Shown: in pieces, positions 1 through 9,234 of the stretch | How positions within the stretch are numbered: the first letter of the stretch is position 1 | Layout: the number at the start of each line of letters is the position of its first letter | Virus record (IMG/VR): IMGVR_UViG_2534681773_000016 | Coordinates: 1-9,234 of that record | Origin: a virus | Taxonomy: Duplodnaviria > Heunggongvirae > Uroviricota > Caudoviricetes | Direction: 5' to 3' (one strand) | Length of the DNA stretch: 9,234 nt | Position numbers and translations under genes: made by a program | Notes under the pieces: generated by a model | Databases searched by the model: none | The model's input: the letters and a program-made list of their open reading frames with translations, nothing else | Told to the model about the DNA's origin: nothing

Positions 1-1839
1 TATGATGTTGTCAGGGCGGCGTCGCCGTCAGACCTTGCGGAAAAGCTGACACACAAACTGAAAGAGGGCTGGCAGCCATACGGCGGACCGGTTGCCATTA
101 CGCCGTACACACTGATGCAGGCGGTGGCTATTGAAGGAGATCCACAGGTCGGCCCTTCATCTGAGCCGGACTGGTTCTACGTGGTTGTGCTTGCCGGACA
201 GTCCAACGGCATGGCCTACGGTGAAGGGCTTCCGTTACCGGATTCTTACGATGCTCCGGATCCGCGCATTAAACAGCTGGCGCGCCGCAGCACGGTAACT
301 CCGGGTGGAGAGAGTTGTACGTATAACGACATCATCCCGGCTGACCACTGTCTGCATGATGTGCAGGATATGAGTACGCTGAATCATCCGAAGGCAGACC
401 TGAGCAAAGGGCAGTACGGCTGTGTCGGCCAGGGCTTACATATTGCCAAAAAACTGCTCCCGTATATCCCGAATAACGCGGGGATCCTGCTGGTACCATG
501 CTGTCGTGGTGGTTCGGCATTCACCCAGGGCGCGGAGGGGACATTCAGTGCGGACGCGGGGGCCAGCCAGGATTCGGCGCGCTGGGGTGTGGGTAAACCG
601 TTATATCAGGACCTGATTGCGCGCACTAAAGCTGCATTACAGAAGAACCCGAAAAATGTGTTGCTGGCGGTGTGCTGGATGCAGGGAGAGTTTGACATGA
701 GCGCCGCCACCTACGCACAGCAACCTGCGCTGTTTACAGCCATGCTGAAGCAGTTTCGTGCTGACCTCACTGTGTTTAACGCGCAGTGTCATGGTGGCAG
801 TGCTGCAGATGTGCCGTGGATTTGTGGTGACACGACGTATTACTGGAAAAATACATACGCTACCCAGTACGACACCGTGTACGGCGGGTATAAAAACAGG
901 GAGAGTGAGGGCGTTTATTTTGTGCCCTTCATGGCAGACGGTAACGGCGTCAATACCGCCACTAACGCGCCGGCAGAAGATCCGGATATTCCGGCATCAG
1001 GATATTACGGTGCGGCATCGAGAACGAATGGAAACCAGGTATCATCAAACCGCCCGACACATTTCAGTTCATGGGCGCGCAGGAGCATTATTCCGGATCG
1101 TCTGGCAACCGCTATTCTGAACGCAGCCGGGCGCACCTCAGCCTTCATCAGTGGTAAGGCACCGGAAATCAAACCCTCGCCCGGCGGCAACACGCCATCG
1201 GGTCCGTCTGCAGATACGTCCGTTCGCACAATCTCCCTGCTGCCGGCAGCCGGAGAGGCTGCTGCGCAGGGCTGGAGCATTAAGGATGGCGGAATTCAGT
1301 TGTCAGATGGTGTATTTAAGATCACCAAGCAGAGCAATAAAACCTGGTCCCTGACGCATCCGGTGGATGACGCAATTACCCTGCTGACACAGGGCGGCAG
1401 ACTGACCTGTAAGTTCCGCCTGTCAGGCGCACTGACCAACAATCAGTTCGGGCTGGGGATTTATCTGTATACGGATGCTCCCGTTCCTGATGGTGTGGCG
1501 ATGACGGGTACCGGTAATCCGTTCCTGATGTCGTACTTCACTCAGACCACTGACGGCAGAGTGAATCTGATGCATCACAGGAAAGCCGGAAACACGAAGC
1601 TGGGGGAGTTCGGCGATTACGGTAACGACTGGCAGACGCTGGAGCTGGTGTTCACCGCCGGCAGTGCCACGGTTACTCCGAAACTGAATGGAGTGGCTGG
1701 CCCGGCATTCCAGGTTATAAAAGACGGTCTGACACTGGGACTGAATGCGCTGACGCTGACGGATGTTACCAAAAATGCAGCGTATGGCGTTGAGATAGAA
1801 AGTCTGGTGCTGGAGATAAATGCACCGGCATCATCATAA
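1..1839 (+). CDS. nanS-p: Prophage sialate O-acetylesterase, NanS-p-like (DUF1737-like N-terminal segment + SASA/SGNH esterase + C-terminal domain); 5' end lies upstream of the window
   Basis: Frame 1 is open from base 1 to TAA at 1837-1839; the ORF track starts at M115 only because the true start is outside the window. Residues 1-40 (YDVVRAASPSDLAEKLTHKLKEGWQPYGGPVAITPYTLMQ) look like the DUF1737 segment. The GQSNGMAYGEG block at ~aa 66-76 is the SASA-family (GQSN) variant of the SGNH active-site motif. Position immediately upstream of the holin matches NanS-p genes of Stx/lambdoid prophages. Confidence 0.8.
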   Translation, partial: YDVVRAASPSDLAEKLTHKLKEGWQPYGGPVAITPYTLMQAVAIEGDPQVGPSSEPDWFYVVVLAGQSNGMAYGEGLPLPDSYDAPDPRIKQLARRSTVTPGGESCTYNDIIPADHCLHDVQDMSTLNHPKADLSKGQYGCVGQGLHIAKKLLPYIPNNAGILLVPCCRGGSAFTQGAEGTFSADAGASQDSARWGVGKPLYQDLIARTKAALQKNPKNVLLAVCWMQGEFDMSAATYAQQPALFTAMLKQFRADLTVFNAQCHGGSAADVPWICGDTTYYWKNTYATQYDTVYGGYKNRESEGVYFVPFMADGNGVNTATNAPAEDPDIPASGYYGAASRTNGNQVSSNRPTHFSSWARRSIIPDRLATAILNAAGRTSAFISGKAPEIKPSPGGNTPSGPSADTSVRTISLLPAAGEAAAQGWSIKDGGIQLSDGVFKITKQSNKTWSLTHPVDDAITLLTQGGRLTCKFRLSGALTNNQFGLGIYLYTDAPVPDGVAMTGTGNPFLMSYFTQTTDGRVNLMHHRKAGNTKLGEFGDYGNDWQTLELVFTAGSATVTPKLNGVAGPAFQVIKDGLTLGLNALTLTDVTKNAAYGVEIESLVLEINAPASS

Positions 1840-1924
1840 AAAGTGAGCCAGTCAAATGGAAGGTATCGTTAAACTCACCGGTAGTGTCAGTGGGTCGTCT
1901 GAGATGCCTGCATGAGTTATCAGA

Positions 1925-1954
1925 GCCATCAGTACTTAACTGGTGGCTTTTTTT
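1925..1954 (+). terminator. Rho-independent terminator between nanS-p and the holin
   Basis: 8-bp stem 1925-1932 (GCCATCAG) pairing with 1940-1947 (CTGGTGGC), one G-U pair, 7-nt loop, followed by T7 at 1948-1954. Confidence 0.7.
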
Positions 1955-1989
1955 ATTGTTGTCAGCTTCCGGATAACGGGAGACGGGGT

Positions 1990-2205
1990 ATGTACCAGAT
2001 GGAAAAAATCACAACAGGTGTGTCATACACCACGTCAGCGGTGGGAACGGGCTACTGGTTCCTGCAGTTGCTGGACAGGGTTTCCCCGTCTCAGTGGGCG
2101 GCAATAGGCGTGCTGGGGAGTCTGCTGTTTGGGCTGCTGACATATCTGACTAACCTGTATTTCAAAATCAGAGAGGACCGTCGTAAGGCTGCACGGGGAG
2201 AGTAA
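1990..2205 (+). CDS. S: Class II pinholin, phage 21 S21-like, with dual-start motif (Met1 at 1990, Met4 at 1999)
   Basis: 71 aa, [71 protein letters not shown]. Two TMDs and a charged C-terminus, near-identical in pattern to S21 68/71 as I remember it. GGGAGACGGGG SD-like element sits upstream of ATG 1990. The ORF-track start at 1912 is rejected because it precedes the terminator and lacks an RBS. Confidence 0.9.
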
Positions 2206-2209
2206 TTCA

Positions 2210-2524
2210 ATGACTCAAAACTATGAACTGATTGTGAAAGGGATCCGCAATTTTGAGAATAAAGTTACGGTAACTTTAGCGTTACGGGACAAAAAACGCT
2301 TTGACGGTGAAATTTTTGACCTGGACATCTCGCTGGACCGTGTTGAAGGTGCCGCGCTGGAGTTTTATGAGGCAGCAGCCAGAAGGAGCATCAGACAGGT
2401 CTTCCTGGATGTTGCTGCCGGGTTATGTGAAGAGGACGAGCTGTTGCCAGAAACGCGCCCCTGTTCAGAGGCGCGGAATACCATAAAAATTAACAGTTCT
2501 GATAACTCGATTACGTGTTGTTAG
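2210..2524 (+). CDS. Small conserved prophage protein between holin and endolysin (YdfR / DUF1327-like, from memory)
   Basis: 104-aa ORF starting 5 nt after the holin stop, with GGAGAG SD 9 nt upstream. N-terminal half (MTQNYELIVKGIRNFENKVTVTLALRDKKRFDGEIFDLD...) resembles the small ORF found at this position in E. coli Qin-type lysis cassettes. Family assignment is unverified. Confidence 0.65.
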   Translation: MTQNYELIVKGIRNFENKVTVTLALRDKKRFDGEIFDLDISLDRVEGAALEFYEAAARRSIRQVFLDVAAGLCEEDELLPETRPCSEARNTIKINSSDNSITCC

Positions 2525-2579
2525 CTTTTTGCAGTTGGCTTTCCAGTATCTTTCATTGGTAGCATCCTGATAAATATCC

Positions 2580-3113
2580 ATGAGCGCAAAAATCAAATAC
2601 GGCCTGTCAGCTGCTGTTCTGGCGCTGATTGCTGCAGGCGCGTCTGCTCCTCAGATACTTGACCAGTTTCTGGACGAAAAAGAGGGTAACCACACAACGG
2701 CATACCGCGATGGTTCCGGCATCTGGACCATCTGTCGGGGGGCCACGATGGTGGATGGAAAACCCGTTTTTCCCGGTATGAAACTGTCGAAGGAAAAATG
2801 CGACCAGGTCAACGCCATTGAGCGTGATAAGGCGCTGGCATGGGTGGAGAAAAACATCAAAGTGCCATTGAGCGAACCCCAGAAAGCGGGGATCGCGTCA
2901 TTCTGTCCGTACAACATTGGTCCCGGTAAGTGTTTCCCGTCGACGTTTTATAAACGAATTAATGCAGGTGATCGCAGGGGAGCGTGTGAGGCGATTCGCT
3001 GGTGGATTAAGGACGGTGGCAGAGACTGCCGTATTCGTTCAAACAACTGCTACGGTCAGGTATCCCGTCGTGACCAGGAGAGCGCGCTGGCGTGCTGGGG
3101 TATCGACAGATAA
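2580..3113 (+). CDS. R: SAR (signal-anchor-release) endolysin, T4-lysozyme-like (GH24), R21/P1 Lyz type
   Basis: 177 aa. N-terminal Gly/Ala/Ser-rich weakly hydrophobic SAR domain (GLSAAVLALIAAGASA) followed by the catalytic E...D...T spacing (DEKEGNHTTAYRDGSGIWTICRGAT). Pairing with a pinholin is the expected arrangement. Confidence 0.9.
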   Translation: MSAKIKYGLSAAVLALIAAGASAPQILDQFLDEKEGNHTTAYRDGSGIWTICRGATMVDGKPVFPGMKLSKEKCDQVNAIERDKALAWVEKNIKVPLSEPQKAGIASFCPYNIGPGKCFPSTFYKRINAGDRRGACEAIRWWIKDGGRDCRIRSNNCYGQVSRRDQESALACWGIDR

Positions 3114-3207
3114 GCAGAATATTTTGCTGAAAAATAAGGCATGGCCACGCGGGCGGATAACATGAAATCCTGCGAACTGGCGAAACGTAAGTGAATAAAA
3201 GTAAAAA

Positions 3208-3237
3208 CCCCGTTTGTTGGCACCAAGCGGGGGTTTT
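3208..3237 (+). terminator. Terminator-like hairpin in the R-Rz intergenic insertion
   Basis: 9-bp stem 3208-3216 pairing with 3224-3232 (one G-U), 7-nt loop, then T4 at 3234-3237. An A5 run at 3203-3207 upstream means it could act on either strand. The T-tract is short, so strength is moderate. Confidence 0.5.
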
Positions 3238-3273
3238 GTGTTTCCTGACTCCGGAAAAGTCAAAGGAGAAAGT

Positions 3274-3411
3274 GTGTTTGATTTTAGCAAACTGATTCGG
3301 GAGATTCGAGTGATGGCTGAAAAATTATCCACCTGGAAGTTCATTCTTATCTGGCTGGTGTTTGTGATTATGGCCTCCGGTTATTTCATCGGTCAGATAC
3401 GCTGGTGGTGA
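3274..3411 (+). CDS. Small single-TMD membrane protein of unknown function, inserted between endolysin and Rz
   Basis: GTG start at 3274 preceded by AAGGAG (3263-3268) with a 5-nt spacer. 45 aa with one hydrophobic helix ([22 protein letters not shown]). Stop TGA 3409-3411 lies 1 nt before the Rz ATG at 3413, suggesting translational coupling. An alternative start at ATG 3313 would give 32 aa. Confidence 0.55.
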
Positions 3412-3412
3412 A

Positions 3413-3880
3413 ATGAACCGCGTACTGTGCGTGGTCATCATTGCCCTGCTGGTGGCCTGTGGTGCGCTTAGTCTGGGGCTGAATCATTACCGTGATAACG
3501 CCATTACCTACAAAGCCCAGCGCGACAAAAATGTCAGAGAACTGAAGCTGGCGAACGCGGCAATTACTGACATGCAGATGCGTCAGCGTGATGTTGCTGC
3601 GCTCGATGCAAAATACACGAAGGAGTTAGCTGATGCGAAAGCTGAAAATGATGCTCTTCGTCGCAAGCTTGATAATGGTGGCAGGGTGCTCGTCAAAGGA
3701 AAATGCCCTGTGCCATCCTCAGCCGAAACCTCCAGCGCCTCCGGCATGGGCAATGATGCCACCGTCGAACTCTCTCCAGTTGCTGGACGAAACGTTCTCG
3801 GTATCCGGGACGGAATTATCCGCGACCAAACAGCACTGAGAACGCTTCAGGAATACATCAGGACGCAATGCCTTCGATGA
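3413..3880 (+). CDS. Rz: Rz i-spanin (inner-membrane spanin subunit)
   Basis: 155 aa with N-terminal TMD. Central segment [59 protein letters not shown] is essentially lambda Rz as I remember it; both termini differ. Confidence 0.9.
3633..3839 (+). CDS. Rz1: Rz1 o-spanin lipoprotein, embedded in the +1 frame of Rz
   Basis: 68 aa. Signal peptide with lipobox MVAGC, followed by a proline-rich stretch ([17 protein letters not shown]). Lies wholly inside Rz in another frame, the canonical embedded-spanin arrangement. Confidence 0.85.
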
Positions 3881-4054
3881 TAGCGATAATTTTACTCATC
3901 ATCCTTCACATCTGGCTCTGTAGACAGGGTGGTGATCACTTCTGGAGTGAATCCAGATTTAACATCTCATTGCTGATGCTTGATATTGAGCATCTTGCGC
4001 GCGGTAAGGAGCTGCGTTGAGATAAGAGCCAGTCATCACAAACACCAGGATTTA

Positions 4055-4077
4055 GCCTCGCATTCGCGGGGCTTTTT
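4055..4077 (+). terminator. Rho-independent terminator downstream of Rz/Rz1
   Basis: 7-bp stem 4055-4061 (GCCTCGC) pairing with 4066-4072 (GCGGGGC), one G-U, 4-nt loop ATTC, then T5 at 4073-4077. Confidence 0.65.
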
Positions 4078-4098
4078 ATTGCAACAAAGGTAAAGACG

Positions 4099-4386
4099 AT
4101 GGATGAAGAATATCGTAAAGACCTGCAATTGTGGTTTGGCCTGACGCATGCGTCGTTCTGCGTGATGCCGAGAGTATTCATGGAGGCTATGCCGCAAGAA
4201 TGGCAAGAGAAGATGGCGCAGTTGCTTTTTGAGTATGGCGACACGATCAAAACGGATGTCTGCGGAGTTCACAGCTGTTTCGTTACTGCCAAAGACGGCA
4301 ACAACCGCTTTATGAGGATGCCAGAAGATATTCTGAACTATCGTCATCCCCGGCGTGAGTTCATCGAATCATTTCTGAAGAAGTAG
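4099..4386 (+). CDS. Hypothetical protein (moron ORF A), family not recognised
   Basis: 95-aa ORF with ATG start and weak AAGG SD. Codon usage looks enterobacterial (CTG, GCG, CCG). Contains a His/Cys cluster (H17, C21, C65, H68, C70). Sits 21 nt after the terminator. Confidence 0.55.
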   Translation: MDEEYRKDLQLWFGLTHASFCVMPRVFMEAMPQEWQEKMAQLLFEYGDTIKTDVCGVHSCFVTAKDGNNRFMRMPEDILNYRHPRREFIESFLKK

Positions 4387-4479
4387 CCATTACAAAGTCT
4401 ATCTGCGGGGGGCTTGATAAAGGTGCTTTCACCTCGCTTAGCATGGTATGTTCTGACTACCAACTTTTTGGGAGGACAC

Positions 4480-4704
4480 ATGGAACTGATAAATGGACGG
4501 CCAGGCAGAGATTTTATAGTGGGAACATATACCTACTCAGAAATTAAAGATCTTAACTTCATGGCTAAGGAAGAGAAAAGAGCTCGTGAAGAGCTAAAGC
4601 ATCGGGGTTACGAATTGGCGTATATCAAGGCGGACTCTGAATGTAACGGGATGTTTGTCAGGGCGTACCGGGTCTATACTGACAAAGCGCCATCTAATGT
4701 CTAA
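4480..4704 (+). CDS. Hypothetical small protein (moron ORF B), family not recognised
   Basis: 74-aa ORF from ATG 4480 with GGGAGGA SD at 4470-4476. Highly charged (KEEKRAREELKHR). The ORF-track start at 4414 is a TTG without RBS and is rejected. GC about 44% by hand count. Confidence 0.55.
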   Translation: MELINGRPGRDFIVGTYTYSEIKDLNFMAKEEKRAREELKHRGYELAYIKADSECNGMFVRAYRVYTDKAPSNV

Positions 4705-4751
4705 ATATACCTCGGGCGGTTTTTTACGTTCATTACCGTACGCAATTACAG

Positions 4752-4779
4752 CAGGCATTCATTGAGTGCCTGTGATAAT
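4752..4779 (+). promoter_or_regulatory. Candidate extended -10 promoter overlapped by an inverted repeat, upstream of moron ORF C
   Basis: TGtGATAAT at 4771-4779 is an extended -10-like element. Inverted repeat CAGGCA (4752-57) / TGCCTG (4767-72) with a 9-nt spacer overlaps the -35-equivalent region, which is itself poor (GCAGGC). No experimental support. Confidence 0.3.
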
Positions 4780-4839
4780 GATTTATCAACGTGCTTGCAA
4801 ACGGTATTCTAGACCTCCAATTATCCTAAGGAGGTTTTT

Positions 4840-5244
4840 GTGGTTAAAAATTTAGAATACATGAAGGGGATGCTTGAGGTATTTTTGAAAGCGAAAACTC
4901 CCTTTATATCTACAAAAGACTTAGCTAATGCGGGGTACGATATCTGCTCGAATGAAGGGATGTTTCATTATCTACTTCTTATTGAGCAAGGTTATATCAG
5001 TAATAAAGATCTAATAACGGATGACATAACTAAACTGGGCTACATGCGCCATTGTGGCCATATGCTAGATATGGGTACCGACGTGCGACTATCTGCGCAG
5101 GGACAAGAATTCGCCCAGGCATTAAATGAACCTACGGTTTTTGAGAAATTAAAGTCAATGAGCGATGCCCCTTTGAGTACAATCAAAGATGTTGGGCTGG
5201 AGTTAACGAAGGCCTATTTAAAGAAGAAATTTGGCCTCGAGTAA
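4840..5244 (+). CDS. Hypothetical protein (moron ORF C), low GC; possibly a winged-helix-type small protein (DUF2513-like is a guess)
   Basis: 134-aa ORF from GTG 4840, preceded by the strongest SD in the window (AAGGAGG 4828-4834, 5-nt spacer). GC about 40% by hand count over 4801-5280, versus 50% or more in terminase and esterase genes. Confidence 0.6.
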   Translation: MVKNLEYMKGMLEVFLKAKTPFISTKDLANAGYDICSNEGMFHYLLLIEQGYISNKDLITDDITKLGYMRHCGHMLDMGTDVRLSAQGQEFAQALNEPTVFEKLKSMSDAPLSTIKDVGLELTKAYLKKKFGLE

Positions 5245-5304
5245 AATTTCTACCCTCACGAGTTAAGTTGTTTTGTGATGGTTATTCGCAATGAATATCT
5301 CTAG

Positions 5305-5331
5305 CCACTGGCATTTGCTGGTGGTTTTTTT
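5305..5331 (+). terminator. Rho-independent terminator closing the moron cassette, upstream of cos
   Basis: 8-bp stem 5305-5312 (CCACTGGC) pairing with 5317-5324 (GCTGGTGG), two G-U pairs, 4-nt loop, then T7 at 5325-5331. Confidence 0.55.
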
Positions 5332-5456
5332 ATGCGCATCCCTCGCGCACCACAAAGGGAGTCTTTCAGTAGTGATTCTGAATATCAGTGTGATAAACGT
5401 ATTTGACAATCATTATCATTTTTGGTGGGTCCTTTCCGGCGATCCGACAGGTTACG

Positions 5457-5468
5457 GGGCGGCGACCT
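5457..5468. other. cosN: cosN cohesive-end site (12-nt sequence GGGCGGCGACCT), with a lambda-like cosQ-side flank upstream
   Basis: 5424-5502 reads GGTGGGTCCTTTCCGGcGATCCGACAGGTTACG / GGGCGGCGACCT / CGCGGGTTTTCGCTATTTATGAAAATTTTCCGG. From memory this matches the lambda right end plus the first ~46 nt of the lambda left end with one mismatch. It sits ~185 bp upstream of the small terminase gene, as in lambda. Confidence 0.85.
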
Positions 5469-5505
5469 CGCGGGTTTTCGCTATTTATGAAAATTTTCCG
5501 GGATC

Positions 5506-5604
5506 CATGTCCGGTTTCTCTGCAAGTTAACTATATGAAAAATATAAAAACAGGCTGTCCGTGAACCGGACATGTGCAAAAAACGGACATGTAAACCGGA
5601 CATG
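5506..5604. repeat. cosB: cosB-like region: four copies of a 9-mer (CCGGACATG) flanking an AT-rich tract; candidate small-terminase binding sites
   Basis: CATGTCCGG at 5506-5514 (inverted) and CCGGACATG at 5566-5574, aCGGACATG at 5583-5591, CCGGACATG at 5596-5604 (direct). AT-rich tract AAAAATATAAAAA at 5539-5551 lies between them, analogous to the lambda R3-I1-R2-R1 layout but with a different repeat sequence. Additional inverted repeat AACCGG(n6)CCGGTT at 5594-5611. Confidence 0.6.
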
Positions 5605-5651
5605 ACCGGTTTTGTGCTGATTGTGAGGTAAGAGTTTTTGCGAGGTGAGGA

Positions 5652-6161
5652 GTGGCTACGCAGACTGAAGTTGCCAGGCATTTGAGTCTGACCGATCGCC
5701 AGCTTCGCAGATTGCAGAAATTACCGGGTGCCCCGGTCTCGAATAAGCGAGGGCAACTGGATCTGGATGCCTGGCGCGATTTTTACATATCGTATCTGAG
5801 AAGAAGTAAAAACGATGTGCCTGATGGCGATAGCGAAGAAGACTATGAAGAGAAATTGCTTATTGCCAGATGGGAACTGACAGCAGAACAGGCTGTTACA
5901 CAGCAGTTAAAAAATGAGGTGTCAAAAGGAAAACTGATTGACACCGGGTTCTGTATTTTTGCCCTCAGTAAGCTGGCAATGGCGTTATCCAGTACGCTTG
6001 ATTCCATCCCTTTATCCATGCAGCGACAGTTTCCTGATTTAACACCGCGCCATCTTGACCATCTGAAAACCCTTATTGCTAAGGGGGCAAATCAGTGTGC
6101 GCGGGCAGGGGATAAATTACCGGATTTACTTGATGAATATATCAGAGCAACAACTGAATAA
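5652..6161 (+). CDS. Terminase small subunit (lambda gpNu1 family)
   Basis: 169 aa from GTG start with GAGGTGAGGA SD. C-terminal two thirds align to lambda Nu1 from memory (TGFCIFALSKLAMALSSTLDSIPLSMQRQFPDLTPRHLDHLK vs TAFCTFVLSRIAGEIASILDGLPLSVQRRFPELENRHVDFLK). The N-terminal HTH region is divergent. Confidence 0.9.
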   Translation: MATQTEVARHLSLTDRQLRRLQKLPGAPVSNKRGQLDLDAWRDFYISYLRRSKNDVPDGDSEEDYEEKLLIARWELTAEQAVTQQLKNEVSKGKLIDTGFCIFALSKLAMALSSTLDSIPLSMQRQFPDLTPRHLDHLKTLIAKGANQCARAGDKLPDLLDEYIRATTE

Positions 6162-8060
6162 TATGATGAGCGCTGTCACAACTGCATTACAGCCCCTGAT
6201 AAGGGCATTGCCGGTGACGCCAGTTGAATGGGCTGATCAAAATTATTATCTGCCTAAAGAATCTTCATATGGTGAGGGCGAATGGAAAACGCTGCCATTC
6301 CAGATCGCCATCATGAACAGCATGGGGAATGATCAGATCCGCACTGTTAATCTGATTAAATCTGCCCGTGTTGGCTATACAAAGATGTTGCTGGGGGTGG
6401 TCGGGTATTTTATTGAGCATAAATCCCGAAACAGTCTGCTTTTTCAGCCCACGGATTCTGCCGCTGAAGATTTTATGAAGTCTCACGTGGAGGCGACGAT
6501 TCGGAACGTGCCATGCCTGAAAGACCTTTCCCCATGGCTGGGTCGTAAACATCGTGACAATACTCTCACGCTGAAACGCTTTTCATCGGGCGTCGGTTTC
6601 TGGTGCCTGGGCGGCGCTGCCGCCAAAAACTACCGTGAAAAATCCGTGGACGTGGTCTGTTATGACGAGCTTTCCTCGTTCGAACCGGATGTTGAAAAAG
6701 AGGGTTCGCCAACCCTGCTGGGGGATAAACGTATTGAGGGCTCTGTATGGCCAAAATCCATTCGCGGCTCGACGCCTAAAATCAAAGGCTCCTGCCAGAT
6801 CGAAAAAGCCGCTAACGAGTCGGCACACTTCATGCGTTTTTATGTGCCCTGTCCGCACTGTGGGGAGGAGCAGTATCTGAAATTTGGCGATGATGCCTCG
6901 CCTTTCGGTCTTAAGTGGGAGAAGAATAAGCCAGAAAGTGTTTTCTACCTTTGTGAGCATCATGGCTGTGTGATCCATCAGTCTGAGCTTGACCAGAGTA
7001 ACGGGCGGTGGATCTGTGAAAACACGGGCATGTGGACCCGTGACGGCCTGATGTTTTTCAGCGCCCGGGGTGATGAAATTCCGCCGCCGCGCTCCATCAC
7101 TTTCCATATCTGGACGGCGTACAGTCCGTTCACCACCTGGGTACAGATTGTCTATGACTGGCTGGATGCACTGAAAGATCCCAACGGCCTGAAAACCTTT
7201 GTGAACACCACGCTGGGCGAGACCTGGGAAGAGGCCGTGGGCGAAAAACTCGATCACCAGGTGCTGATGGATAAGGTTGTGCGTTACACGGCGGCGGTGC
7301 CTGCCCGGGTGGTTTATCTGACGGCGGGCATTGACTCGCAGCGAAACCGTTTTGAGATGTATGTCTGGGGATGGGCTCCGGGAGAGGAAGCCTTTCTGGT
7401 GGATAAAATCATCATTATGGGGCGTCCCGATGAGGAAGAGACGCTGTTACGTGTGGATGCGGCGATCAACAAAAAATACCGCCATGCAGACGGAACCGAA
7501 ATGACCATTTCCCGTGTCTGCTGGGACATCGGGGGGATCGATGGCGAAATCGTTATCAGAGGTCAAAAAAACACGGTGTTTTCCGGGTGCTGCCGGTAAA
7601 AGGCGCATCTGTCTATGGCAAGCCGGTGATCACCATGCCAAAAACCCGCAATCAGCGGGGCGTGTATCTGTGTGAAGTGGGGACGGACACCGCAAAAGAA
7701 ATTCTCTATGCCCGTATGAAAGCCGATCCCACGCCTGTGGATGAAGCCACGTCGTATGCCATCCGTTTTCCTGATGATCCGGAGATTTTTTCGCAGACAG
7801 AGGCGCAGCAACTGGTCGCGGAAGAGCTTGTGGAGAAGTGGGAAAAAGGAAAGATGCGTCTGCTGTGGGATAACAAAAAGCGGCGTAACGAAGCGCTGGA
7901 CTGCCTGGTGTATGCCTACGCGGCATTACGTGTGTCCGTGCAACGCTGGCAGCTTGATCTGGCTGTACTGGCAAAATCCCGGGAAGAAGAGACGACCCGG
8001 CCAACCCTGAAAGAACTGGCAGCGAAGCTGTCCGGAGGAGTGAATGGTTACAGTCGCTGA
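6133..8060 (+). pseudogene. Terminase large subunit (lambda gpA family) interrupted by a 1-nt frameshift (frame 1 to frame 3) near 7555-7572
   Basis: Frame 1 from ATG 6133 (MNISEQQ..., overlapping the Nu1 end as in lambda) carries Walker A KSARVGYTK and aligns to gpA up to ...CWDIGGIDGEIVI, then hits TAA at 7597-7599. Homology continues in frame 3 (RSKKHGVFRVLPVKGASVYGKPV ... to TGA 8058-8060). Combined length is about 642 aa versus 641 for lambda gpA. The true start is ATG 6133, not the ORF-track start at 6076. Confidence 0.75.
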
Positions 8061-8250
8061 ACTGCAGGCGCTGCGTCAGGCGCGCCTTGATTTATTAACC
8101 GGTAAACGGGTGGTGTCTGACCAGAAAGATGGTCGCAGAATTGAATATACGGCGGCTTCTCTGGATGAGCTTAACCGGGCGATCAATGATGCGGAGTCGG
8201 TACTGGGGACAACCCGGTGTCGCCGTCGTCCGCTGGGAGTGAGATTATGA
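8044..8250 (+). CDS. W: Head-tail joining / head completion protein, lambda gpW family
   Basis: 68 aa. LTGKRVVSDQKDGRRIEYTAASLDEL matches lambda gpW [26 protein letters not shown]. Start overlaps the end of the terminase frame-3 segment. Confidence 0.85.
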   Translation: MVTVAELQALRQARLDLLTGKRVVSDQKDGRRIEYTAASLDELNRAINDAESVLGTTRCRRRPLGVRL

Positions 8251-9234
8251 AACGAACGCCTGTCCTGATTGATGTGAACGGCGTTCCGCTTCGTGAGAGT
8301 CTCAGCTACAACGGGGGCGGTGCAGGATTTGGCGGGCAAATGGCTGAGTGGTTGCCACCGGCGCAGAGTGTCGATGCGGCCCTGCTGCCCGCGTTGCGTC
8401 TGGGGAATGCCCGGGCAGATGATCTGGTGCGCAATAACGGAATAGCGGCTAATGCGGTGGCCCTGCATAAGGATCACATTGTCGGGCATATGTTTCTGAT
8501 CAGCTACCGTCCGAACTGGCGCTGGCTGGGGATGCGGGAGACCGCAGCAAAAAGCTTTGTCGATGAGGTGGAGGCGGCCTGGTCGGAATACGCCGAAGGG
8601 ATGTCTGGCGAGATCGACGTGGAAGGAAAACGCACGTTCACGGAATTTATCCGTGAAGGTGTGGGCGTTCATGCGTTTAACGGCGAAATCTTTGTGCAGC
8701 CGGTCTGGGATACGGAAGCCACGCAGTTATTCCGTACGCGTTTTAAAGCCGTGAGTCCGAAACGGGTGGACACGCCTGGACACGGTATGGGGAACCGTTT
8801 TCTGCGGGCCGGTGTGGAGGTCGATCGATATGGCCGTGCCGTCGCGTACCATATCTGTGAGGATGATTTTCCGCGCTCCGGGAGTGGACGATGGGAACGG
8901 ATCCCGCGTGAACTTCCCACCGGGCGTCCGGCCATGCTGCATATTTTCGAGCCGGTGGAGGACGGGCAGACCCGTGGGGCTAATCAGTTTTACAGCGTCA
9001 TGGAACGGCTGAAGATGCTCGATTCCCTGCAGGCAACACAGCTTCAGTCGGCCATAGTGAAAGCCATGTATGCAGCGACGATTGAAAGTGAACTTGATAC
9101 CGAAAAGGCCTTTGAATATATCGCCGGCGCGCCACAGGAGCAGAAGGATAATCCGCTTATTAATATTCTGGAGAAGTTCTCCAGCTGGTATGACACGAAT
9201 AACGTGACACTGGCGGTGTCAAAATTCCGCACCT
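8247..9234 (+). CDS. B: Portal protein, lambda gpB family; 3' end lies beyond the window
   Basis: Frame 3 is open from ATG 8247 (ATGA overlap with the W stop; GGAG SD) to the window end. Absent from the ORF track because no stop occurs in the window. Translation MKRTPVLIDVNGVPLRESLSYNGGGAGFGGQ ... HIFEPVEDGQTRGANQFYSVMERLKMLDSLQATQLQSAIVKAMYAATIESELDT aligns closely with lambda gpB. Confidence 0.9.
   Translation, partial: MKRTPVLIDVNGVPLRESLSYNGGGAGFGGQMAEWLPPAQSVDAALLPALRLGNARADDLVRNNGIAANAVALHKDHIVGHMFLISYRPNWRWLGMRETAAKSFVDEVEAAWSEYAEGMSGEIDVEGKRTFTEFIREGVGVHAFNGEIFVQPVWDTEATQLFRTRFKAVSPKRVDTPGHGMGNRFLRAGVEVDRYGRAVAYHICEDDFPRSGSGRWERIPRELPTGRPAMLHIFEPVEDGQTRGANQFYSVMERLKMLDSLQATQLQSAIVKAMYAATIESELDTEKAFEYIAGAPQEQKDNPLINILEKFSSWYDTNNVTLAVSKFRT

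Follow-up and report, generated by a model that had tools for sequence, protein, structure and literature searches.

Does a gene for a NanS-p-type sialate O-acetylesterase, found directly before the lysis genes of a lambdoid prophage, indicate a Shiga-toxin (Stx) phage, and is the enzyme there to feed the lysogen or to serve the phage particle? The question is raised by the window examined here, a 9234-nt stretch of DNA which is the entire draft contig AIGZ01000044.1 of assembly GCA_000250195.2, the one record returned by an exact look-up of the gpW product. The AIGZ accession is among the draft genomes of the E. coli DECA collection (PMC3558956). The best explanation of the locus is that nanS-p closes the series of accessory genes in the late operon of a prophage of the lambda/phage-21 type and is followed directly by a holin-endolysin-spanin cassette. 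Taken as a whole, namely a NanS-p esterase in the late operon of a prophage that most probably lacks stx, this explanation is given a probability of roughly 0.86.

Identification of the nanS-p gene and its protein domains

The nanS-p gene occupies positions 1–1839 of the + strand, on which all of the features described below also lie. Its reading frame (frame 1) runs for 612 uninterrupted codons from base 1 to the TAA stop at 1837–1839, and the remaining two frames of the + strand are riddled with stops over the same interval. The feature is real at these coordinates, far beyond anything expected by chance. The sequence-only reading of this DNA had stated that the window begins within the gene, and this is correct. 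The contig end cuts off only the first five codons of the gene, given that its full-length relatives begin 15 nt further upstream with MAFKH.

The three-domain architecture of NanS-p was found using Pfam, with each match exceeding its own gathering score. DUF1737 (PF08410, E 1e-13) forms the N-terminus at aa 1–44 (nt 1–132) and is of subtype A, with the loop PVAITPYTLMQ. The central SGNH/SASA catalytic domain covers aa 55–374 (nt 163–1122) and includes the Pfam SASA match at aa 61–257 (E 2e-12). The C-terminal lectin-like jelly-roll domain (nt 1246–1824) includes the DUF6645 match at aa 462–572 (E 5e-18). PHROG 143 covers the protein from end to end with a score of 1141 bits, and no NCBIfam model matched the protein. 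Searches against the PDB aligned aa 55–374 with E. coli NanS/YjhS (3PT5) at 57% identity over 320 residues (E 3e-121), and aa 416–608 with the homologous C-terminal domain of NanS-p (6YP6, E 1e-29), while no PDB chain was matched by sequence in the DUF1737 segment. An AlphaFold2 model made from an 18-sequence alignment had a mean pLDDT of 60 and was confident only for the beta-sandwich of the C-terminal domain (pLDDT 83–93), with most of DUF1737 and a large share of the esterase domain below 50. That the protein is a sialate O-acetylesterase of the NanS-p type, as had been read earlier from the letters of the sequence, is borne out by the SASA/SGNH domain detected both with Pfam and by the match to 3PT5. 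Judged by its sequence, the window protein has every NanS-p feature that can be checked at that level.

Chromosomal NanS (YjhS, 3PT5) was also considered as an identity for the protein. It has the GQSN, RGGSAF and MQGEFD blocks and the Ser/His pair in common with the window protein, but it is a single-domain protein without DUF1737 or DUF6645, and its gene is chromosomal and not a prophage late gene (PMC10462455). It was ruled out because of the two extra domains of the window protein and the prophage late-operon context.

Active-site motifs and predicted esterase activity

Definitions of the catalytic blocks were taken from PMC10792757, where the SGNH blocks of 3PT5 are GQSNA, RGGSAF, MQGEFD and R-x-SHFS. 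In the window protein, block I is GQSNG at aa 66–70 and contains Ser68 (nt 202–204), block II is RGGSAF at aa 169–174, block III is MQGEFD at aa 227–232 and block V is THFS, in the context R-P-THFS, with His354 (nt 1060–1062). On the sequence evidence, the protein is complete save for the first five residues and its active-site motifs are intact. In the numbering of the 617-residue full-length protein, Ser68 and His354 become Ser73 and His359.

Ser68 would act as the nucleophile and His354 as the base, with the oxyanion hole provided by the GQSN and RGGSAF blocks. The SGNH domain would strip O-acetyl groups off the sialic acids of mucin, for example Neu5,9Ac2, the targets being the 7-, 8- and 9-O-acetyl groups of sialic acids that are either free or mucin-bound, and the C-terminal lectin-like jelly roll probably aids binding of the glycan. 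Once de-acetylated, the Neu5Ac could be imported and catabolised as a carbon source by the surviving population of lysogens.

The activity of NanS-p alleles has been reviewed in PMC8065619 and PMC10462455, and those of strains EDL933 and C227-11 were all reported to act on Neu5,9Ac2 as well as on the O-glycans of mucin (PMC8065619). When compared with alleles of strains with reported-active enzymes, the window NanS-p is 95% identical to the Stx1a-phage allele, 85% identical to the allele in the syntenic non-Stx prophage of O104:H4 C227-11 and 56% identical to L0105/z1466 of phage 933W. The window allele is predicted to be an active esterase, and conservation of the motifs backs the proposed chemistry.

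The 933W protein L0105 is the biochemically and structurally characterised reference for the family. It corresponds to vb_24B_21/gp84 of phage phi24B, and PDB 6YP6 is its C-terminal domain. It resembles the window protein in the order of its domains, in its catalytic blocks and in the location of its gene upstream of S, with accessory genes before it as in the nearest relatives of the window. The overall identity of 56% breaks down into 62% for DUF1737, 70% for SASA and 35% for the C-terminal domain. The 933W protein has a subtype C DUF1737 and a longer linker containing 'SISSP', whereas the window protein is of subtype A and lacks SISSP. In addition, 933W is a short-tailed phage whose head module is of another kind (P22-like portal and Phage_capsid_3), and its nanS-p gene follows stx2AB.

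It is conceivable that the esterase targets O-acetylated glycans of bacteria, such as the O-antigen or capsule, and thereby aids adsorption or release of the phage, rather than acting on the sialic acids of host mucin. Bacterial substrates are left as an open possibility in a review (PMC8065619), and such a role would fit the association of the phi24B protein with the virion (preprint 10.64898/2026.04.10.717836). However, the catalytic domain has 57% identity to NanS, for which Neu5,9Ac2 is the substrate, the EDL933 and C227-11 alleles have the reported activities on Neu5,9Ac2 and mucin O-glycans cited above (PMC8065619), and the sequence gives no pointer to another substrate. A bacterial glycan as the main target is considered improbable.

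The region upstream of nanS-p and the scarcity of stx in relatives

The sequence-only reading had cautioned that stx, tRNA genes or Q immediately upstream could not be seen from the window, and the caution was justified since the window is the whole contig. Neither the window nor the E. coli genome loci examined, which reached at most 10 kb upstream, contained any Stx-like sequence. A sibling contig, AIGY01000038.1 (L008), has three differences from the window in positions 1–5500 and differs by ∼2% from 5500 onward, and it specifies the same NanS-p protein. The gene order on the sibling contig is a Q-like antiterminator, an N6/N4 DNA methyltransferase, three tRNA genes with anticodons CAT, TCG and TCT (tRNA-Ile2/Arg/Arg), a spacer of ∼490 nt and then nanS-p, and stx is absent from the 7.7 kb upstream of nanS-p.

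Alleles with at least 99% DNA identity to the window gene were found in 114 records of complete E. coli chromosomes. Five of these were inspected (O111:H11 8D, 14EC001, O145:H28 RM12581, O103:H2 12009 and PE164) and stx was not found upstream in any of the five, nanS-p being preceded at all five loci by Q and accessory genes, and in most cases by tRNA genes as well. A total of 80 IMG/VR relatives with 85–99% protein identity were also fetched, 68 of which had at least 2 kb of upstream sequence. Among these 68 close relatives, stx1 was found in two and stx2 in none, and stx was absent from all 13 of the IMG/VR relatives having the exact N-terminal signature of the window.

These observations have to be weighed against an arrangement in which the contig would be the right part of an Stx-converting prophage, stxAB being on a separate contig of the same assembly and ∼0.5 kb ahead of nanS-p. 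This arrangement is found in known phages: in the Stx1a phages, 500 nt separate the end of stx1B from a nanS-p allele of 95.5% DNA identity, and in 933W the distance from the end of stx2B to L0105 is 487 nt. Alleles resembling that of the window adjoin stx1 at loci L034 and L061, the contig break coincides with the 5′ end of nanS-p, and the late regions of lambdoid phages are highly mosaic, with flanks that hardly track each other. Nevertheless, the near-identical sibling contig has no stx in its 7.7 kb of upstream sequence, every inspected allele with at least 99% identity is without stx, and only two of the 68 close relatives have the gene, the 13 that share the N-terminal signature all being without it. 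An Stx-converting prophage is considered very unlikely. The absence of stx from the window strain is deduced from these relatives because the record itself holds no upstream sequence, and the prophage is, on their evidence, most probably not Stx-converting.

The allele of the Stx1a phages, yjhS (Stx1_14040, H-19B and YYZ-2008), resembles the window gene closely in having 95% protein identity, the same architecture and a subtype A DUF1737. It differs from what the nearest relatives of the window show in having stx1AB 500 nt upstream. The differences from the window allele are greatest at the 5′ end, including DUF1737, where the identity is 85.5% compared to 96–97% for the other domains.

Phage 434, a lambda-type phage without stx, provides a second comparison. 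Its protein CPT_434_71, annotated as 'SASA family carbohydrate esterase', shares with the window protein the three domains, a length of 616–617 aa and 96% identity, the two being separated by a few dozen substitutions, and in both cases nanS-p lies just before a class II holin gene. The upstream genes are different: phage 434 has a Q82-like Q and genes for membrane proteins, in contrast to the methyltransferase and tRNA genes in the relatives of the window. The lysis genes of phage 434 are also different alleles from those of the window.

Distribution of nanS-p in E. coli

The gene had been described, from the sequence, as characteristic of the Stx-converting and related lambdoid prophages of enterohaemorrhagic E. 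coli. This description needs qualifying, for the gene is not specific to such strains. A match to nanS-p was found in 2190 of 5426 complete E. coli genomes, with a median of two places per genome and as many as 15, and the copy in the classical non-Stx phage 434 has 95.8% DNA identity to that of the window. Non-Stx prophages have also been reported to carry active nanS-p (PMC10462455; PMC8065619). nanS-p is a common accessory gene of lambdoid phages and is not a marker for Stx phages. Given that most such copies are in non-Stx prophages, the presence of nanS-p beside a lysis cassette should not be taken to signal a Shiga-toxin phage, and the practical value of the present result is as negative evidence on this use of the gene. 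The presence of several copies of nanS-p may still boost growth on the O-acetylated sialic acids of mucin. As a finding, the gene itself matters little: the same protein exists in public records and the widespread alleles of at least 99% identity are annotated as 'SASA family carbohydrate esterase', so it is already known, belonging to a described family that is routinely labelled by annotation pipelines.

Genes downstream of nanS-p and the state of the prophage

The location of nanS-p immediately upstream of the lysis cassette, as noted from the sequence beforehand, was evident once the downstream genes were assigned. A hairpin resembling a terminator and followed by a T-run, a consensus match only, is present at 1922–1950 between nanS-p and the holin gene, which starts 150 nt past the nanS-p stop. 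The holin (1990–2205) is a class II protein of the P21 S-type with 71 aa (PF04971, E 9e-33). It is followed within the cassette by a protein of the DUF1327/YdfR family (2210–2524; PF07041, E 3e-38), whose PHROG is of unknown function, by an endolysin of the phage lysozyme type with a hydrophobic N-terminus (2580–3113; PF00959, E 2e-24), and by the i-spanin Rz (3413–3880), within which is embedded the o-spanin lipoprotein Rz1 (3633–3839), the pair matching PF03245/PF06085. Several small open reading frames after Rz/Rz1 matched PHROGs of unknown function only.

A head module of the lambda/phage-21 type occupies 5652–9234 and runs to the end of the contig. It comprises Nu1 (5652–6161), the large subunit of terminase split into two frames (6133–7599 and 7587–8060), gpW (8044–8250) and a portal gene from 8247 to the contig end. 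No Rfam families or tRNA genes were found within the 9234-nt window.

It is proposed that, when the prophage is induced, the Q-dependent late promoter would drive nanS-p along with the late genes and, as NanS-p has no signal peptide, that the protein would be released upon lysis of the cell. Treatment with mitomycin C has been found to raise nanS-p by 1–2.4 logs in Stx2a strains (PMC10462455).

With respect to all of the relatives compared, two genes of the head module have each lost 1 nt: that for the terminase large subunit, which is split by a deletion near 7553, and that for the portal, whose frame shifts after a deletion near 9211. Exact 41-mers spanning the terminase deletion were not found in IMG/VR or in the GTDB representative genomes, and an exact look-up of the broken terminase product gave no match. 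The deletions suggest that the prophage may be defective or that the contig is imperfect, and either could alter the behaviour of the late operon. If they are genuine, the prophage would be unable to package its DNA and the effect of nanS-p would be confined to induction and lysis. Carried further, the two deletions would be in keeping with nanS-p being a non-functional relic of a prophage under decay, or part of an assembly chimera, and giving no active enzyme; broken copies of nanS-p are indeed common elsewhere (e.g. L002, L006, L018 and L025). This is, however, the least probable of the alternatives considered and is hardly credible for nanS-p itself, since the frame of 612 codons is unbroken, the protein is identical in the sibling strain, all of the catalytic blocks are whole and there is not a single insertion or deletion with respect to the sibling contig across positions 1–5500 of the window.

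DUF1737 subtype and the phage head

A recent study of phage phi24B, a podovirus with a T=9 capsid, describes hexamers formed by DUF1737 of gp84, a NanS-p, on the central hexons of the capsid, with the esterase being cleaved off (preprint 10.64898/2026.04.10.717836, unreviewed). The relationship between DUF1737 and the phage head was examined using 84 loci which had a full-length NanS-p and an identifiable downstream head module, the head types being assigned by Pfam. Three subtypes of DUF1737 were apparent: A with the loop PVAITPYTLMQ found in the window, B with FSSYTDDGAALIQ and C with STAGYGAEFIQ, found in 933W and phi24B. The 69 loci with subtype A have lambda/21 heads (50 loci), HK97-like heads with a protease-capsid fusion (17 loci) or heads with a ClpP-capsid fusion (2 loci). 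All seven subtype B loci have ClpP-fusion heads, and the eight subtype C loci have 933W heads in seven cases and an HK97-like head in one. The window, with subtype A and a lambda/21-type head, has the commonest pairing, that of 50 of the 69 subtype A loci. Sub-variants inside subtype A do not separate the lambda/21 heads from the HK97-like heads.

Over the 84 loci, which share ancestry and are not phylogenetically independent, the adjusted mutual information (AMI) with head type was 0.56 for DUF1737, compared to 0.18–0.24 for the SASA and C-terminal domains and 0.08–0.15 for the sequences just upstream and downstream of nanS-p. When the loci were dereplicated to 16 combinations, the AMI was 0.39 for DUF1737 with a permutation p of about 0.004, and at or below zero for the other domains. 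Coupling of DUF1737 to the head amid shuffled intervening sequence is what would be predicted for a capsid-binding module.

Simple linkage was considered as the cause of the association and was rejected, because the segments flanking nanS-p are almost unassociated with head type, with shared ancestry remaining as a caveat.

The association is relevant to a possible role of NanS-p mainly as a virion protein, in which DUF1737 would dock on the lambda/21-type capsid in the manner of gp84 of phi24B. The esterase and lectin domains would then be carried on the particle, or freed by autoproteolysis, to the benefit of the phage in mucus or where it meets O-acetylated glycans on surfaces, and feeding of the lysogen would be secondary. 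This role would agree with the hexamers of DUF1737 on the capsid hexons of phi24B (preprint 10.64898/2026.04.10.717836), with the tracking of the head module by DUF1737 subtype (AMI 0.56 over the 84 loci, other parts of the gene and its flanks reaching at most 0.24), and with the presence in the DUF1737 loop of the window protein of a tyrosine at a position like that of the Tyr42 anchor. However, subtype A is found unchanged with two unrelated capsid families, Phage_cap_E and the HK97-like Phage_capsid, which argues against a tight lock-and-key fit, and the window protein is without the SISSP linker motif, the proposed site of cleavage. Furthermore, the loci are not phylogenetically independent and the structural work is an unreviewed preprint. 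A mainly virion-borne NanS-p is put forward as a tentative possibility, somewhat less likely than even. It is compatible with the esterase chemistry proposed above.

A more general form of the idea, to be held equally tentatively, is that DUF1737 may anchor NanS-p to a capsid of matching head type not only in the podoviruses phi24B and 933W but also in lambdoid phages with lambda/21-type or HK97-like heads. If this is true, then virions of the window prophage would display its esterase or release it. Selection would hold the subtype of DUF1737 together with the head genes, leaving the two other domains of NanS-p (catalytic and lectin), the lysis genes and the accessory genes upstream free to recombine. 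Confirmation would extend the idea of a virion-displayed NanS-p to a large group of lambda-type E. coli prophages, and the association between DUF1737 and the head would then outweigh the finding of nanS-p itself.

A further observation concerns the layout of these loci. The far end of the nanS-p gene is coupled to head genes located 4–7 kb away, and everything between the two is shuffled.

Association of the NanS-p N-terminal domain with the head module

The loci related to the window (L028-L187 together with the E. coli genome loci) were examined for any correspondence between the domains of NanS-p and the genes lying downstream. The subtype of the N-terminal DUF1737 domain, of which there are three loop types, was found to follow the downstream head-gene module with an adjusted mutual information (AMI) of 0.56. 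Across the same loci, the SASA domain, the C-terminal domain and the immediate flanks did not track the head module (AMI 0.08-0.24). Many related loci with lambda-type heads have a catalytic and C-terminal body like that of phage 933W joined to a lambda-type DUF1737.

In several E. coli genomes (L002, L006, L018 and L025) nanS-p is broken up, with two or three ORFs in its place; one such arrangement is a DUF1737 ORF alone followed by an ORF for SASA and DUF6645. Genomes carry multiple copies of the gene, and many of these have therefore decayed.

Variable genes around nanS-p and the lysis cassette

A gene of the DUF1327/YdfR family (2210-2524) lies between the holin and endolysin genes. In relatives the gene at this spot is either a version of 104-329 aa or a truncated pseudogene, and the position is a variable insertion site within the lysis cassette. 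Between the spanins and Nu1 there are three ORFs of 95, 96 and 134 aa (4099-5244), which gave no Pfam match and matched only PHROG families of unknown function. GC content is lowest across this part of the window, at 40-43% compared with ∼55% elsewhere, and the three ORFs are likely to be accessory (moron) genes.

In some relatives, UPEC69 and O104:H4 C227-11 among them, the interval from the tRNA genes to nanS-p holds iraM, encoded on the opposite strand (8390-8725 in related locus L001 and 5390-5725 in L188). The product of iraM is an anti-adapter that stabilises RpoS. The slot is the one occupied by stx in Stx phages.

Mosaic boundary and apparent frameshifts in the head genes

Comparison with L008, the contig from the sibling strain, showed just 3 differing positions over 1-5500 but a difference of ∼2% over 5500-9234, where all other relatives differ by ∼3-4%. 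A mosaic boundary lies at ∼5500, and it points to either recombination in the cos/Nu1 region or a short-read consensus collapsed from several similar prophages. The window is one complete draft contig, starting 15 nt into nanS-p and ending within the portal gene, and both ends probably run into repeats that recur in other lambdoid prophages in this genome.

The terminase large subunit is encoded by two ORFs (6133-7599 and 7587-8060) because of a single-base deletion near 7553, seen when 7540-7600 was compared with all six relatives. This deletion is either a genuine inactivating frameshift or an error of the draft assembly; if it is real, the prophage would be defective. The portal gene, which starts at 8247 and is cut off by the contig end, shows the same pattern. 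A second 1-base deletion near 9211 (GG rather than GGG, within 9205-9234) shifts its frame 24 nt short of the contig end.
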